Source of the DNA: a virus
Taxonomy: Duplodnaviria; Caudoviricetes
Direction: 5' to 3' (one strand)
IMG/VR virus record: IMGVR_UViG_3300021431_000113
Coordinates: 1 to 64,000 of that record
Length of the DNA stretch: 64,000 nt
The position numbers were made by a program, and so were the translations under genes. The notes under the pieces are model-generated. The model was given only the letters and a program-made list of their open reading frames with translations, did not search any database and was not told the DNA's origin. Positions 8 through 37,786 of this stretch are shown here, piece by piece (the first letter of the stretch is position 1; every line of letters starts with the position of its first letter).

Positions 8-81
8 TTGGATAAGTGGGATTCGAACCCACATCCTTCTGCACTTATAGCAGCGCTTTCTCCTCATTAAGCTATTATCCG
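8..81 (-). tRNA. atypical tRNA-like gene, isotype undetermined (loop TATAAGT, nominal TAA)
   Basis: Acceptor CGGATAA/TTATCCA (C1:A72 mismatch), D stem GCTT/AAGC, T arm GTGGG-TTCGAAT-CCCAC; anticodon stem only 4 bp (CTGC/GCAG). Confidence 0.6.
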
Positions 82-208
82 TATATAAACTCGCCAGTTT
101 ATATATTTTTAGTATGCATACATTTTCTTTTTAGGACAGAAAAATTAATACCTGCTGTTCTTCTTTCTTTTACTTCGCAAGAACTCAGTTTCAAGTAACG
201 AAGGCGCG

Positions 209-283
209 CTGGCACGGTAGGATTCGAACCTACGGAAACTGGCAGATTAACAGTCTGTTCGCATACCACTTGCGGACGTGCCA
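209..283 (-). tRNA. tRNA-Asn(GTT)
   Basis: Acceptor TGGCACG/CGTGCCA, anticodon loop CTGTTAA, T arm GTAGG-TTCGAAT-CCTAC. Confidence 0.9.
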
Positions 284-617
284 AAATTAAAGAGGGGAAG
301 GAAGAGTTGCGGATAGGACGTCCGCCTCTTTCTACAAGGTCTTACATCTTCAGTAGATACTCATAGTTACAATCATTACTTTCACTACCTTATAGCCTAA
401 CTTCCACTGGAGTATTTCTTAACTCACTCTCTTATTTTATATAAATGAAACAGTTTCACAGCTTTTAGCAAGTCCAGTCCGATTTTATCTTGCTTTCCTG
501 TACACCTGGCACACTCTTTATTCCCCATTTGGAGCTAATCATTCCTCCTAGCGTGTTACTCTTAACAAGGTTTGCAACCCTTTGTTAAGTTTCTTTTCTG
601 TTTCATTTTCTATATAT

Positions 618-646
618 ATTATACTAAAATTTTTTAAAAATTGCAA
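618..646 (-). promoter_or_regulatory. sigmaA-type promoter inside the tRNA cluster
   Basis: Minus strand TTGCAA-N17-TATAAT. Confidence 0.75.
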
Positions 647-658
647 AAATTTTAGTAG

Positions 659-729
659 AACGGGTAAACGGATTTGAACCGTCACCAAATGCTTGGAGGG
701 CACTTATGCTACCATTACACCACACCCGC
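659..729 (-). tRNA. tRNA-Gly(TCC), C at position 33
   Basis: Acceptor GCGGGTG/TACCCGT, anticodon arm AGTGC-CCTCCAA-GCATT, T loop TTCAAAT. Confidence 0.88.
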
Positions 730-811
730 ATATAAAGCAGATTATTGCGAACTTGCCATCTGCCAGGGCGGCACCTTTATTTTATATAGCGAAGGTCATG
801 TATCTCCGCTA

Positions 812-881
812 AGTGCCGAGTTGGAGTTGAACCAACCTCACTGATTTTGCAGACCAGCCGCCTTCCGCAGACATTCGACAC
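812..881 (-). tRNA. tRNA-Cys(GCA)
   Basis: Acceptor GTGTCGA/TCGGCAC, anticodon loop CTGCAAA, T arm GTTGG-TTCAACT-CCAAC, U73. Confidence 0.85.
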
Positions 882-963
882 ATATTCCTACTCACCATAT
901 ATTGAATTCGTCCGGACTCGTCCAACCTTTTGGGAGGGCTATCATATGGCTTTTGGAAATAAG

Positions 964-1048
964 TCGGGATAGATGGACTCGAACCACCGATGTTTCTTAT
1001 GTCTGGGTTTACAGCCCAGTGCAATCGCCACTCTGCTACCATATCCCG
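964..1048 (-). tRNA. tRNA-Tyr(GTA)
   Basis: Acceptor CGGGATA/TATCCCG, anticodon arm CTGGG-CTGTAAA-CCCAG, long variable region, T loop TTCGAGT. Confidence 0.9.
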
Positions 1049-1054
1049 ATGTTG

Positions 1055-1128
1055 TGGAGCTAACGAGGATCGAACTCGTAACCTTCTGTGTGCAAAACAG
1101 ACGCTCTCCCAATTAGAGCTATAGCCCC
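1055..1128 (-). tRNA. tRNA-Ala(TGC)
   Basis: GGGGCTA/TAGCTCC with G3:U70, loop TTTGCAC, T loop TTCGATC. Confidence 0.93.
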
Positions 1129-1137
1129 ATAATAAAG

Positions 1138-1209
1138 TGGGAAGTATAGGAACTGCCCCTATACGCCCTGGGCTTCAACCAAGCGCTCTTCTAATTGAGC
1201 TAACTTCCC
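1138..1209 (-). tRNA. tRNA-Phe(GAA) with non-canonical T loop
   Basis: GGGAAGT/ACTTCCC, anticodon arm CTTGG-TTGAAGC-CCAGG, T arm ATAGG-GGCAGTT-CCTAT. Confidence 0.85.
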
Positions 1210-1220
1210 ATATAATACTT

Positions 1221-1381
1221 ATTCTTGGGTGGGGATTTACACCCCACATAAATACCAGTTCCCATATAGCTTTTACTACTATATCTCAATATTCTCGTCA
1301 AATATACGCCTATCTACGGCTCAGAACTTGTTTCCATATTTCAGGACTACACTATGCGTCTACTTATTCCGCCACCAAGAA
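1221..1381 (-). ncRNA. 161-nt tRNA-like RNA with large structured insert in place of the anticodon arm
   Basis: Acceptor TTCTTGG/CCAAGAA, D arm TGGCGGAATAAGTAGACGC, T arm GTGGGG-TGTAAAT-CCCCAC; about 105 nt between the D and T arms. Confidence 0.75.
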
Positions 1382-1384
1382 CAA

Positions 1385-1704
1385 TGGACCTGGCGAGAGT
1401 CGAACTCGCGTCTCAAAATACTATCTTACAATCCTTTTACGCAATAGGCTTTAGGGAGCCACCCAACATAAGGTAATAAGGTTTACCTACTCCACCAGGC
1501 GAAAGTGTGTCCGCCGCACTCAACTGTTTCAGTTTTCGATCCTCAAAGTTTACAGAAAACAGATTACTCTACACTTCTTTTGGAACCTAATAGGATTAGG
1601 CAGCCATTCTATATTCGTTTGCGTTTATTTTTAAAGGTGACTTAACGATGTCGGTCGTGCGAGATTATAAGCTTCATACCCTGATCGATACCCCTTACAA
1701 GCCC
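1385..1704 (-). ncRNA. ssrA: tmRNA, tag peptide ANEYRMAA*
   Basis: 5' GGGCTTG pairs with 3' CAGGTCC-A (G3:U70); T arm GCGAG-TTCGACT-CTCGC; resume context AAATAAAC-GCA, tag ORF 1622..1596 ends GCT GCC TAA. Confidence 0.93.
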
Positions 1705-1744
1705 TAATTTAATTATTATTATTTCTCTTTCATTTTCTATAATA

Positions 1745-1773
1745 ATTATAACAAAATTTTAATAAAAATGCAA
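1745..1773 (-). promoter_or_regulatory. sigmaA-type promoter upstream of tmRNA
   Basis: TTGCAT-N17-TATAAT with TG before -10. Confidence 0.75.
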
Positions 1774-1774
1774 G

Positions 1775-1858
1775 CGCAGTGTGAGGGAGTCGAACCCCCG
1801 CTCCGTTGCCGAAGGACGATTTTCAAGACCGCTTAGTGCGCCGACCACAATACACTGC
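1775..1858 (-). tRNA. tRNA-Ser(TGA), atypical D arm
   Basis: GCAGTGT/ACACTGC-G73, loop CTTGAAA, long variable arm, T loop TTCGACT. Confidence 0.82.
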
Positions 1859-1996
1859 AAATTATAATCATATTTCATTTATTCCTTCTATTCTGCCCTC
1901 CGAAGGACTGAGAGGTTGCTGAGCAACTAACTTTATACACATTACGACCTCACTCTCGGTCATTGGTCACCATCTCTGGCGAAATATGATTATGAA

Positions 1997-2082
1997 CGCG
2001 GAGAGGAAGATTCGAACTTCCGAAACGAGATTCGTTTAACGCCTTAGCAGGGCGCCGCTTTCAACCACTCAGCCATCTCCGC
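1997..2082 (-). tRNA. tRNA-Ser(GCT)
   Basis: GCGGAGA/TCTCCGC-G73, anticodon arm CGCCC-TGCTAA-GGCG region with loop CTGCTAA, long variable arm. Confidence 0.92.
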
Positions 2083-2221
2083 AGGTGTAAGGGTGTCACT
2101 AAGCAAAACTTCTCCCTGTTTTACCCCTTACTATTTACACCGACTGTCGCTATCAATGTAAACTAGGACATAAGTTATTCTCAAGTCAGGCTACGACATT
2201 AATACCTTTCTTGACGCTTGT

Positions 2222-2294
2222 AAGCACCGACGGGATTCGAACCCATGTTACCACCGTTAAAGGGCAGTGTCTTAGACCACTTGACTACGGTGCA
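2222..2294 (-). tRNA. tRNA with TTA (ochre) anticodon in a tRNA-Glu body
   Basis: GTCAAGTGGTCTAAGACACTGCC-CTTTAAC-GGTGGTAAC is a Glu-type body whose usual loop CTTTCAC reads CTTTAAC here. Confidence 0.88.
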
Positions 2295-2471
2295 TAAACT
2301 AGAATATTATCGCGAAATTATCTAGGAGATGATTAACCGATACCTCACAAACATATCTTTTTACTCAAAAGACCAGAGGGGTTCTTCGTTAACCCATAAC
2401 GGACTGCTCTTAGCTCACAAAGTTTAGCAGCCAAAACTCGGATACTTTCACAGCGTTTTCTTGCTGGTACG

Positions 2472-2542
2472 AGCTCCCGCCCAGACTCGAACTGGGATTG
2501 ATAGATTACAAATCTACTCGCCTACCATTAGCGGATAGGAGC
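2472..2542 (-). tRNA. tRNA-Thr(TGT)
   Basis: Anticodon arm GTAGA-TTTGTAA-TCTAT, T arm CCCAG-TTCGAGT-CTGGG. Confidence 0.88.
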
Positions 2543-2648: not shown

Positions 2649-2677
2649 ATTATATCAAAAATTTTTAATAAAATCAA
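2649..2677 (-). promoter_or_regulatory. promoter at head of the tRNA cluster
   Basis: TTGATT-N17-TATAAT. Confidence 0.7.
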
Positions 2678-2686
2678 CCAAAAATT

Positions 2687-2968
2687 TTATTCATAAATAT
2701 TATCTCTTTTTACTTCATTCAATTCAGGTATAATCTTTTTGAATTTACGACCAGAGATTTTATAATCATTTGCCCAATCATCATTAAGCTGATATACAAC
2801 CTCATCATAATCGCTTACACAGCCAAAGTATTCAATTTCCATAATATCATAATATTTACCAAGTTTATAAAGAGCATCAGATTCGTCTTTCCCAAATACA
2901 ATACCATATTTTCTTTCAGTTCTATTGTCATCTAAATTATACTCTAATATTATATATTCATAAACCAT
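2687..2968 (-). CDS. hypothetical protein (93 aa)
   Basis: ORF with GAGG RBS and own upstream promoter. Confidence 0.75.
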   Translation of the reverse strand: MVYEYIILEYNLDDNRTERKYGIVFGKDESDALYKLGKYYDIMEIEYFGCVSDYDEVVYQLNDDWANDYKISGRKFKKIIPELNEVKRDNIYE

Positions 2969-3040
2969 AATTATTATACCTCTTTTCTTTATTTTCTATA
3001 ATAATTATAGCAAAAATTTTAAAAAATTACAAAAATAAAA

Positions 3041-32550: not shown

Positions 32551-32934
32551 ATGAATCGGGAAAGGAAAAAATATGTCATGAGAGCTAGTAGAGGAGAAAT
32601 TACAATAGAAGAAATTTTAACTGAAGCTGGATTAGATTTTCAAGAAGAGTATAGCTTTCCAGATTTATTATCTAATACAGGTCGTCCTCTTAGATTTGAT
32701 TTTGCGGTCTTTGATGACGAAGGAGATATTGATTTCTTAATTGAGTATCAAGGAATTCAGCATTATAAGCCAAAAGAAAAATTTGGTGGTATGCAAGGGT
32801 TAAGAAAGCAACAATTTAATGATATGAAGAAACGTGAGTATTGTCGCAAGCATAAAATTAAATTAATAGCTATTCCTTATACAGATGAATTCTTACTTAG
32901 TTATGATTATATTATGAAGAAAGCTGGTTATTAA
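32551..32934 (+). CDS. PD-(D/E)xK-type small endonuclease-like protein
   Basis: LRFDFAVF...IEYQGIQH...DMKKREYC. Confidence 0.7.
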   Translation: MNRERKKYVMRASRGEITIEEILTEAGLDFQEEYSFPDLLSNTGRPLRFDFAVFDDEGDIDFLIEYQGIQHYKPKEKFGGMQGLRKQQFNDMKKREYCRKHKIKLIAIPYTDEFLLSYDYIMKKAGY

Positions 32935-36142: not shown

Positions 36143-36685
36143 ATGGCTACAATCAAAAGAAAAGGTTTTGGTCAGGTTGAGCCTAATCATCTTTCAGCTC
36201 AGAGAACTGGACAGATTTACGCTCAATTAATCGCTGATAAGAATCTTAATATTATTGAGAACGGTATGTTCTTAAAATATGATTATCAAAACAGAAAAGC
36301 TGTTGCTAATGCTTCTGTTGCAGGTGAATGGCTTTTAGTTTATAATGAAGAAAAACTTTATGATCCTCGTAGACAGTCTCATAAGGATTTTGCTATGATA
36401 AAGACAGATTATGTCGATGGTGAAATGGTTCCTCGTCTTTTTAAGACAAATATAGGAGATATTTTCACAACAAATACACTTGAAGCTAACACATCTGATT
36501 CAGCAGTTACAACTGGTGTAACTGTCAATGAGGGGGACACTCTTGTTGTTGGAAGTACAGGTTATCTTGAAGTACTTGGAGCTAGTGCAACTGCAACTGC
36601 GCCTGCATTTAAGGTAGTTGCTATAACAACAATGCCTGATGCTGATACTGATTATCCGGCTGTTAAGTTACAACGTATATTATAA
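36143..36685 (+). CDS. virion head protein (decoration/minor capsid candidate)
   Basis: Between scaffold and MCP, strong RBS, high-expression codons. Confidence 0.55.
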   Translation: MATIKRKGFGQVEPNHLSAQRTGQIYAQLIADKNLNIIENGMFLKYDYQNRKAVANASVAGEWLLVYNEEKLYDPRRQSHKDFAMIKTDYVDGEMVPRLFKTNIGDIFTTNTLEANTSDSAVTTGVTVNEGDTLVVGSTGYLEVLGASATATAPAFKVVAITTMPDADTDYPAVKLQRIL

Positions 36686-36703: not shown

Positions 36704-37786
36704 ATGTCATTAGAAAAGAAAAGTCTTATTACTTTAGCTAAGACAGTGGCAAAAGCTAATCCTCAAGCTGCTGTTGCTTATAGCTTTGGTGATAAAAATT
36801 ATACTTATGCTCAATTAGATGAAACTCTTAGAGCAGAATTAAAAGAAATTGCTGGTACATATCAGCTTTACAGAGAGAATAAGAATATTCTCTTTGAACT
36901 TATTGAGGAAGTTGTAAATGAAGTTCTTCCTGCAAGAGTTATCGAGCAGTATGGTTCATTTGCAGATATCCGTGTATTCGGACAGGGCGAAAAGCCTATA
37001 TTCTCAGTTAAGACTTCACAGGCTTCTAAACAGAGAGCAAAGAAGTTCGTAACAAAGGTTGGACTTGCTGGTGTATATGAAGTATTCAAACTTGATGGAT
37101 ACACCTTAGAAGTTCCTACAGAAGCATGGGGCGGAGCTGCTCAGATTGGTATCGAGGAATATCTTGATGGCAGAATCGACATGGCTGACGTAGTTGAGAT
37201 TATCAATGATGGTCTTAATGAGTGCGTATTTAGAGAAATCGCAAAAGCTCTTAAGTCTGTTATCGCTCAGATTCAGCAGACAAATAAGAAAGCTAACAAC
37301 TCATTTGTTCAGGCAGATATGGATGCACTTCTTCAGATTGCTGATGCATATGGAAAGGCTACTATTTACTGTACATTTGAATTTGCTGCTACAATGGTTC
37401 CAGACAATAACTGGATTTCAAATGAGCAGAAGAACACAATGTGGAACACAGGTTACCTTGCTAATTACAAGGGACATAATGTTGTTATCCTTCCTAACTC
37501 ATTTGAAGATACAAAGAACACTCAGAAAGTTATGGATCCTTCATATGCTTATATCATCCCAACAGGTGCTGATAAGCCTATCAAGATCGCTTTCGAAGGT
37601 GATGCACTCGTTAGAGAATGGGAAAACAGGGATTGGTCAAGAGAAATCCAGACTTATAAGAAATTTGGTGTTGGTATCGTAGGTCTCAATAATGGTATCT
37701 GTGTATATCAAAATACAACTCTTGCTCCAGCTGCTAAGACACTTGTTCTTAATGCTGCACCTGGATTAGATCCAGTATATCAGTAA
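36704..37786 (+). CDS. major capsid protein
   Basis: 360 aa, position, biased codon use, followed by terminator. Confidence 0.8.
   Translation: MSLEKKSLITLAKTVAKANPQAAVAYSFGDKNYTYAQLDETLRAELKEIAGTYQLYRENKNILFELIEEVVNEVLPARVIEQYGSFADIRVFGQGEKPIFSVKTSQASKQRAKKFVTKVGLAGVYEVFKLDGYTLEVPTEAWGGAAQIGIEEYLDGRIDMADVVEIINDGLNECVFREIAKALKSVIAQIQQTNKKANNSFVQADMDALLQIADAYGKATIYCTFEFAATMVPDNNWISNEQKNTMWNTGYLANYKGHNVVILPNSFEDTKNTQKVMDPSYAYIIPTGADKPIKIAFEGDALVREWENRDWSREIQTYKKFGVGIVGLNNGICVYQNTTLAPAAKTLVLNAAPGLDPVYQ

Follow-up and report, generated by a model that had tools for sequence, protein, structure and literature searches.

A conserved tRNA with an ochre-suppressor anticodon and a Glu-type body in an exchangeable slot of a standard-code phage's tRNA array

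Introduction

What does a tRNA whose anticodon is complementary to UAA do in a gut/rumen phage that uses TAA as its main stop codon? The question is raised by a tRNA gene near the start of a 64,000-nt stretch of viral DNA (hereafter, the window), which represents the first 64 kb of a 76,166-nt IMG/VR virus record with a GC content of 33%. An earlier note, made from the letters of the sequence, had described this gene as a tRNA-Glu body carrying a UUA anticodon, had offered low-level readthrough, interference with host termination or nuclease evasion as possible roles, and had kept a pseudogene and a single-base error in play. Orphan suppressor tRNAs in standard-code phages are a proposed first step towards stop-codon recoding.

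CheckV estimates the record to be ~57% complete, with ~43% of the genome absent from it. The encoded terL shares 41-46% identity with its counterparts in Geobacillus virus E3, Enterococcus phages VRE9_4/H1/EF1 and the gut phage Phass-1 (43% for the latter), and closer relatives of the phage are numerous among rumen-type IMG/VR contigs. A Bacillota/Clostridia host is suggested by the relatives and by one MAG bin, the 133-kb relative L134 being also binned, as L135, in an 'Eubacterium sp.' MAG. According to ARAGORN, the tRNA array, which includes a tmRNA, spans positions 8..2542 on the minus strand and is cut off by the contig start. The phage database yielded nothing closely similar to the array, and Pfam and PHROGs scans of 39 ORFs revealed no genes for release factors, peptidyl-tRNA hydrolase or aminoacyl-tRNA synthetases.

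A UUA anticodon in a Glu-type tRNA body

ARAGORN called a tRNA-Stop (tta) at 2220-2295 on the minus strand, and Rfam family RF00005 matched a 73-nt tRNA at 2294..2222 (that is, 2222..2294, minus) over its full length (1-71), scoring 53.7 bits against a gathering score of 29, which is mid-range among the 11 tRNAs in the window (31.7-61.1 bits). Both place the anticodon at 2258..2260, TTA on the minus strand and TAA as written on the plus strand, and the loop read earlier as CTTTAAC reappears in the Rfam alignment as CUUUAAC. Universal positions read from the sequence are canonical (U8, A14, G18, G19, A21, U33, the T-loop GUUCGAAUC and C61), and G53-T54-Ψ55-C56 and A58 are likewise intact in the alignment. 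The sole non-standard pair flagged by Rfam is 1:72, where U stands opposite U, as the earlier note had pointed out; in place of a fully paired 7-bp acceptor stem, the tRNA has six Watson-Crick pairs plus U1·U72, both here and in all three further copies described below. The discriminator is U73, and CCA is not encoded.

The core of the molecule (nt 8-65) is of bacterial tRNA-Glu type. Across nt 10-65, identity reaches 91% to Bacillus and 89% to Paenibacillus tRNA-Glu(ttc). When the core was ranked against ~270 distinct tRNAs of all isotypes, its six nearest neighbours were all bacterial tRNA-Glu(UUC), with the best non-Glu neighbour scoring about half as high, and matches in the phage database land on features annotated as tRNA-Glu. 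The D stem GUCA/AGAC, comprising U11:A24 and a non-Watson-Crick A13·A22, and the 4-nt variable loop UAAC, which is without residue 47, are both identical to Bacillus tRNA-Glu, in agreement with the Glu-type D stem and variable loop proposed previously, and the anticodon stem pattern CnGCC/GGnGG is common to the suppressor and tRNA-Glu. Two features of tRNA-Glu are missing. The anticodon is UUA rather than YUC (C36), and the acceptor, without G1:C72, reads UGCACCG/CGGUGCU where Bacillus has GGCCCGU/ACGGGUC. It is unlike the acceptor stem of every tRNA-Glu compared, with pairs 4:69, 6:67 and 7:66 changed on both sides relative to bacterial tRNA-Glu and pairing retained.

Other origins and identities were considered and rejected. 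The tRNA-Glu(UUC) genes of the phage's own lineage (G001, G004, L134, L139) are only distantly similar, arguing against them as the source. An initiator-like function is suggested by the 1:72 mismatch combined with G2:C71 and C3:G70; however, initiator tRNAs carry three G:C pairs in the anticodon stem, and the phage tRNA does not. Finally, acceptor pairs 2-7:66-71 and U73 equal those of tRNA-Cys genes matched by a 21-mer, but this match is built into the search, the anticodon is wrong for CysRS and the copy in contig L114 has C73.

The tRNA recurs in independent assemblies

A 21-mer taken from the T arm and 3' acceptor strand matched a single metagenome contig, L114 (GenBank JAEIGA010112430.1), and a search for contigs with the gene for the neighbouring 93-aa protein yielded L130 (ENA ERZ12302819) and L131 (ENA ERZ28612943). 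All three are independent assemblies carrying the same TTA tRNA, so that an anticodon complementary to UAA is present in four assemblies and two tRNA haplotypes. L114 shows the same Thr–Sup–Ser(GCU) arrangement as the window. The suppressors in L130 and L131 are identical to that of the window, while their tRNA-Thr allele and spacer differ from it, and the L130 array also has a homing-endonuclease gene inserted; altogether, the same suppressor tRNA occurs beside three Thr/spacer haplotypes. Inspecting the anticodon in related phages, a check that the earlier note had proposed, thus returned TTA and not TTC, which removes the caveat of a single-base error. The suppressor tRNA is real, conserved and not a sequencing error. 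Exact-pattern scans of the other IMG/VR contigs (2.9 million) and of GTDB species genomes, with patterns that would miss the L114 variant, retrieved no further tRNA with a Glu-type TTA anticodon arm.

The L114 suppressor is identical to that of the window at 70 of 73 positions (95.9%). Two of the differences, C31U and U41C, interconvert G:C and G·U, so the anticodon stem stays paired; the third, U73C, affects the discriminator, and the anticodon loop is unchanged. Between the same two contigs, flanking genes share 69-83% DNA identity and the mid-spacer 78.5%, while tRNA-Ser(GCU), a yardstick for a bona fide tRNA, shares 96.6%. The probability of observing three or fewer differences in 73 nt is 3e-5 at the spacer rate and 8e-4 at 17% divergence. 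A pseudogene should have diverged at the neutral rate and collected structure-breaking changes; we found three differences in 73 nt against 21.5% spacer divergence, a comparison that is confounded by mosaic recombination and so does not decide the matter. The pseudogene option is weakened by a tRNA that is 96-100% conserved across its known copies. At the same time, the leader (95.7%, 67/70) and trailer (94.1%) of the gene are as conserved as the tRNA itself and the region is a recombination mosaic, so recent transfer of the cassette as a unit could produce part of the conservation signal.

The phage uses the standard genetic code

TAA is the main stop codon of the phage, as had been stated, ending 36 of the 62 ORFs in the window and 59% of those in the whole record. 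Four relatives without the tRNA in the sequence available use TAA in 63-68% of cases; the phage's share is not significantly lower, indicating no adaptation of stop use. The terL, portal and tape measure genes, identified by PHROGs or annotated homologues, all end in TAA, again as described before, and coding density in the late region is 0.947 under the standard code. When relatives' ORFs were used as tblastn queries against the 76 kb record, no in-frame TAA, TAG or TGA was found inside conserved coding sequence, and every stop aligned in this test sits at a gene boundary. Similarly, relatives without the tRNA have no sense codon where the phage has TAA, and translations reading through TAA, TAG or TGA gave only off-frame, antisense or gene-boundary alignments with relatives, leading us to reject recoding of any of the three. 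The phage thus shows neither in-frame stops in conserved genes nor low coding density under code 11, the marks of an alternative code; it uses the standard one, and the earlier view that there is no wholesale recoding holds.

The search for genes served by the suppressor covered the same sequence. TAA-readthrough ORFs filling intergenic gaps were not found, and no client gene was found in the 76 kb record or in the 2-4 kb contigs of the other carriers. Five gene pairs lie in frame across a single TAA, for example, 32551-32934 with the portal gene, and 36143-36685 with 36704-37786. We rejected programmed fusion by readthrough as their explanation, as relatives lacking the tRNA show the same rate (3-10%, against 5/53 here) and the frames show no conservation.

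Two side observations concern stop codons more generally. The base after TAA is G in 14 of 43 genes of the record (G000) and in 31 of 216 genes of four relatives (G001-G004), a comparison uncorrected for multiple testing, which may simply reflect Shine-Dalgarno sequences abutting stops. Moreover, none of the 25 large late-module ORFs at 28279-63432 ends in TAG (21 TAA, 4 TGA), while TAG does end 11 early-region ORFs; a shortage of TAG in late genes has been proposed as the stage before TAG recoding in low-GC phages.

A weak, Glu-inserting ochre suppressor as the favoured reading

We consider the chances about even that the gene encodes a functional and maintained, but weak, ochre suppressor that is tolerated by the phage or mildly useful to it. 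On this account, the tRNA would be co-transcribed with its neighbours from a promoter of the array. ARAGORN and Rfam both identify tRNA-Thr(UGU) upstream (2471..2542, minus), an allele of which is swapped between otherwise near-identical phages, and tRNA-Ser(GCU) downstream (1996..2083, minus). Upstream of tRNA-Thr lies a strong promoter-like site (2649..2677, minus; TTGATT, 17 nt, TG-TATAAT) with 10/12 matches and an extended -10 TG, and the minus strand shows no terminator-like site between it and the suppressor; this site is the likely start of a transcript carrying Thr, the suppressor and Ser(GCT).

After processing, the tRNA would most likely be charged, inefficiently, by a non-discriminating GluRS of the host, with Glu as the probable inserted residue and some Gln or Lys conceivable. 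Charging is plausible, since the tRNA retains the augmented D helix along with U34, U35 and A37, and discrimination at position 36 is relaxed in non-discriminating GluRS. The enzyme of this type found in most GlnRS-less bacteria accepts C36 and G36, discrimination hinging on position 36 (PMC2978374). The tolerance at position 36 that the earlier note had invoked is thereby borne out for these two bases and does not extend, in that source, to the A36 of the phage tRNA. That acceptance is documented for C36 and G36 rather than for A36, and that G1:C72 is missing, counts against the favoured reading; position 36 and G1:C72 are both among the identity elements of E. coli GluRS. The large Glu-type D loop speaks against transamidation by GatCAB, although the suppressor has U1.

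During infection, the charged tRNA would decode UAA and, more weakly, UAG by wobble, in competition with release factors. We predict it to be weak for two reasons. First, the unadapted Glu-type loop is kept (C32...A37-C38), offering no A38 for i6A37; the i6A modification needs an A36-A37-A38 motif, which A37-C38 fails to provide. Second, the acceptor end is imperfect, and a U·U terminus on what is effectively a 6-bp acceptor should weaken binding of EF-Tu and possibly processing and charging. Weakness of this kind would explain why the suppressor is tolerated in a phage that ends 59% of its genes in TAA. The tRNA would then represent the 'pre-emergent/orphan suppressor' state described for further phages with the standard code, having in this case become fixed in a mobile slot of the tRNA cassette.

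Several findings count against this reading. One is an effectively 6-bp acceptor with a terminal U·U, and others are the missing client gene, the unadapted stop use and in-frame gene pairs that are no commoner than in relatives. In addition, only two haplotypes are known, and with leader and trailer equally conserved in a mosaic region, cassette transfer could mimic purifying selection.

An exchangeable tRNA slot between a conserved leader and trailer

We aligned the slot that holds the suppressor across six phage loci. The 5' leader of the slot (2295..2364, minus) matches between the window and L114 at the 67 of 70 positions given above, and its proximal ~45 nt (2295-2340, minus) are invariant in 6/6 loci, including those with a tRNA-Gly. 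No clear sigma-70 promoter is present within 2295-2340 (minus); the invariant block could be a processing signal, a protein-binding site or the target of a homing endonuclease. The six loci that share it differ by 20-30% in other spacers and genes.

On the 3' side, a trailer RNA of ~138 nt (2084..2221, minus) is predicted to form three hairpins. Of its 36 predicted pairs, three persist although both partners have changed, the middle hairpin shows compensatory changes, and the RNA matches no Rfam family. Copies are located at L114:3458-3596, L130:1912-2049, L134:5908-6046, L059:3108-3246 (-) and L132:6093-6232, and the trailer is present whether the slot holds the suppressor, a tRNA-Gly or a tRNA remnant.

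The contents of the slot vary widely. A tRNA-Gly(UCC) with a normal G1:C72 occupies it in L134 and in L136-L140; G004 and L132 have just a T-arm remnant ahead of the trailer; and L141-L145 lack the slot. The G004 remnant, at L059:3250-3300 (-), corresponds to the 3' half of a tRNA-Thr (T arm and acceptor strand) between a protein stop codon and the trailer, and appears to have been cut down by insertion or deletion of a gene. The suppressor and tRNA-Gly versions share the junction bases ...TTTAT/GCA and TGC/T... (the slash marking the junction). Where the slot holds tRNA-Gly, the T preceding G1 serves as leader base -1 and the T following C72 as the discriminator; the suppressor stem is one pair shorter. 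The seventh pair of the suppressor is thus made of the two T's flanking the slot, which explains U1·U72 and renders the acceptor end structurally sub-optimal. Together, the distinct acceptor and the swappable slot indicate that the suppressor is more than the phage's own tRNA-Glu with a point mutation.

Exchange is also visible around the slot. Homing-endonuclease-type genes (HNH_3/NUMOD4, PDDEXK_5/NUMOD1, GIY-YIG) lie between the tRNAs of relatives at L130:2369-2950, L132:5427-6044, L133:472-1089, L145:5202-5627 and L139:4022-4141. Phages that are otherwise 99.5% identical differ in the order and alleles of their tRNAs, with two markedly unlike tRNA-Thr bodies as one example. It is plausible that the homing endonucleases in relatives' arrays drive the exchange of cassettes.

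Alternatives to a weak suppressor

This architecture lends itself to a different account, in which the tRNA is an inactive or nearly inactive passenger: a Glu-type tRNA entered a recombination-prone slot, was joined imprecisely, acquired an anticodon mutation and has little effect on translation, persisting because leader, tRNA and trailer travel together from one co-circulating phage to another and because the insert is too young to have decayed. The origin of U1·U72 in the leader and discriminator bases of the tRNA-Gly version is what such a join would leave, and the free exchange of slot contents, with homing-endonuclease genes in relatives' arrays, fits the same picture. It also accommodates the equal conservation of leader, trailer and tRNA, the missing client gene and stop-use shift, and the absence of the suppressor from the other IMG/VR contigs and GTDB species genomes covered by the exact-pattern scans. 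However, leader and trailer are conserved with other slot contents as well, pointing to constraint of their own, and a dead insert should drift like the mid-spacer, whereas the tRNA has not. Furthermore, the substitutions observed preserve pairing, the universal tRNA positions are all intact and the one tRNA accompanies three Thr/spacer haplotypes. Weighing both sides, we regard a passenger as less likely than a weak suppressor, yet as a rival to be taken seriously.

More elaborate roles fare worse. The suppressor might be a selected part of an expression module, composed of the invariant leader, an exchangeable tRNA and the structured trailer, that re-programmes termination late in infection, either by unlocking a deliberate UAA in a gene within the absent ~43% of the genome or by acting with the phage tmRNA to change what happens to ribosomes that reach host UAA stops; we think this improbable. 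Also improbable is a dedicated key, that is, a translational switch rather than a general suppressor, which would read a deliberate in-frame UAA in a client gene or leader within the absent part. The incompleteness of the record and an array running off the contig start leave space for such a client, and the conservation of the tRNA needs a selective reason. Yet nothing of the kind occurs in the 76 kb or in the other carriers' contigs, relatives without the tRNA show no sense codon at the phage's TAA positions, and the tRNA looks built to be weak.

A non-decoding role appears very unlikely. Here, the tRNA would mimic tRNA-Glu as a decoy or competitor, drawing off a host nuclease that attacks tRNAs or another tRNA-binding defence factor, with the altered anticodon sparing the decoding of GAA/GAG. 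Conflict over tRNA integrity would suit a phage with a large tRNA array, a tmRNA and an RNA-repair HAD protein (HAD_SAK_2), and tRNAs with U34-U35 are classic targets of anticodon nucleases. However, of all anticodon changes it is UUA that makes a tRNA read a stop, which would be strange in a decoy meant to be inert, and we know of no host nuclease for this system. A sequencing or assembly artefact concealing a true TTC anticodon has a negligible chance, given that four independent assemblies from different samples carry TTA, one of them as a diverged haplotype.

Relation to known suppressor tRNAs

Classical chromosomal ochre suppressors, such as supG/supL (tRNA-Lys) and supB (tRNA-Gln) of E. 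coli and sup-3 (tRNA-Lys) of B. subtilis, arise by UUN->UUA changes, suppress UAA and UAG weakly and are tolerated because their efficiency is low. They are laboratory-selected mutants of host genes, whereas the phage tRNA is natural and conserved. A direct laboratory precedent for a tRNA-Glu body with a UUA anticodon is the engineered E. coli tRNA(Glu)-Su-oc, which reads UAA (Raftery & Yarus 1987, EMBO J 6:1499; cited in PMC12204705). As far as it is described in the citing article, it inserts mostly Glu and some Gln, and a Glu anticodon arm left unaltered gives a poor context for suppression (PMC12204705). It is a laboratory construct with G1:C72 kept, in a host whose GluRS is discriminating and which also has GlnRS; the phage tRNA differs from it in its acceptor stem and in U1·U72.

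Orphan UUA suppressors in standard-code phages are already known (PMC7886860, PMC12484599). The closest published case is the crAss-like alpha-group phage OKSC01000115, in which the anticodon of a tRNA-Gln changed from TTG to TTA with no stop reassignment in the genome or its relatives, a state its authors read as 'pre-emergence' (Yutin et al. 2021, PMC7886860). Both phages combine an array tRNA of anticodon UUA with the standard code. In OKSC01000115, however, the suppressor is a point mutation in an otherwise shared tRNA-Gln of a single genome; here, it has a Glu-type body with its own acceptor stem, is found in at least two haplotypes and four assemblies, and has no TTC ancestor among the sequences found. 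The host groups differ as well, Bacteroidota there and Bacillota here, the latter suggested by the relatives and the MAG bin. Bacillus megaphage G also carries a tRNA Sup:UUA, whose role is unexplained (PMC12484599). The likeness is one of anticodon and, for cultured phage G, of infecting a Bacillota host; phage G differs in being a 499-kb megaphage with extensive translation machinery.

Across phage genetic codes, Borges et al. have tabulated suppressor tRNAs for TAG, TGA and TAA. In the Phassvirus lineage, TAG is recoded to Gln with CUA suppressors, and suppressor tRNAs arise within the arrays (PMC10607447). The phage studied here and the Phassvirus phages fall within one broad group, siphophages of ~130-145 kb that carry large tRNA arrays. 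Phassvirus phages contain 37-41 genes with in-frame TAG and Gln-type CUA suppressors; in contrast, in-frame stops are absent from our phage, and the suppressor is directed at the main stop.

By itself, the suppressor case reveals no new mechanism. What is new is the Glu-type body, the fact that the tRNA persists in four assemblies representing two haplotypes, and its location in a swappable slot. The case shows that a stop-reading tRNA aimed at a phage's own main stop can persist across diverged genomes and need not be a one-off mutation. The Glu body makes the suppressor a natural test of the tolerance of non-discriminating GluRS at position 36, and the conserved, swappable slot hints at a route by which such tRNAs spread in a family of phages that has recoded TAG to Gln elsewhere.

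Further features of the array and the record

The phage tmRNA (1382-1704, minus; Rfam 66.4 bits) encodes the tag ANEYRMAA, and the tmRNAs of relatives encode ANNYALAA, ANNYAMAA, ANDYTMAA and ANEYKMAA. Its presence in relatives marks the tmRNA as a lineage-wide trait that is not tied to the suppressor.

Two minus-strand ORFs (8584-9234 and 15488-16126) show similarity to repair-type proteins. A 216-aa product matches PF18143, the HAD domain of 'Swiss Army Knife' RNA-repair proteins (HAD_SAK_2), with an E value of 3.7e-19, and the second ORF is weakly similar to PNKP-type HAD/polynucleotide kinase. Together, the two hint at a conflict with the host over tRNA damage and repair.

At the contig start, a gene called as 'tRNA-Leu(taa)' (8-81, minus) is just 74 nt long, type I and not Leu-like, with a C1×A72 mismatch, a 4-bp anticodon stem and the odd loop UAUAAGU. 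Its homologue in a relative (L139:3020-3092) has a 5-nt loop, AUCAG, and was called tRNA-SeC(tca) by ARAGORN, and the anticodon assignments of both are doubtful.

Finally, intergenic blocks of ~50-70 nt (window ~590-650, 1705-1775, 2620-2675 and 2965-3035) are repeated tens of times across relatives' genomes at 80-90% identity and are probably shared promoter/leader units.
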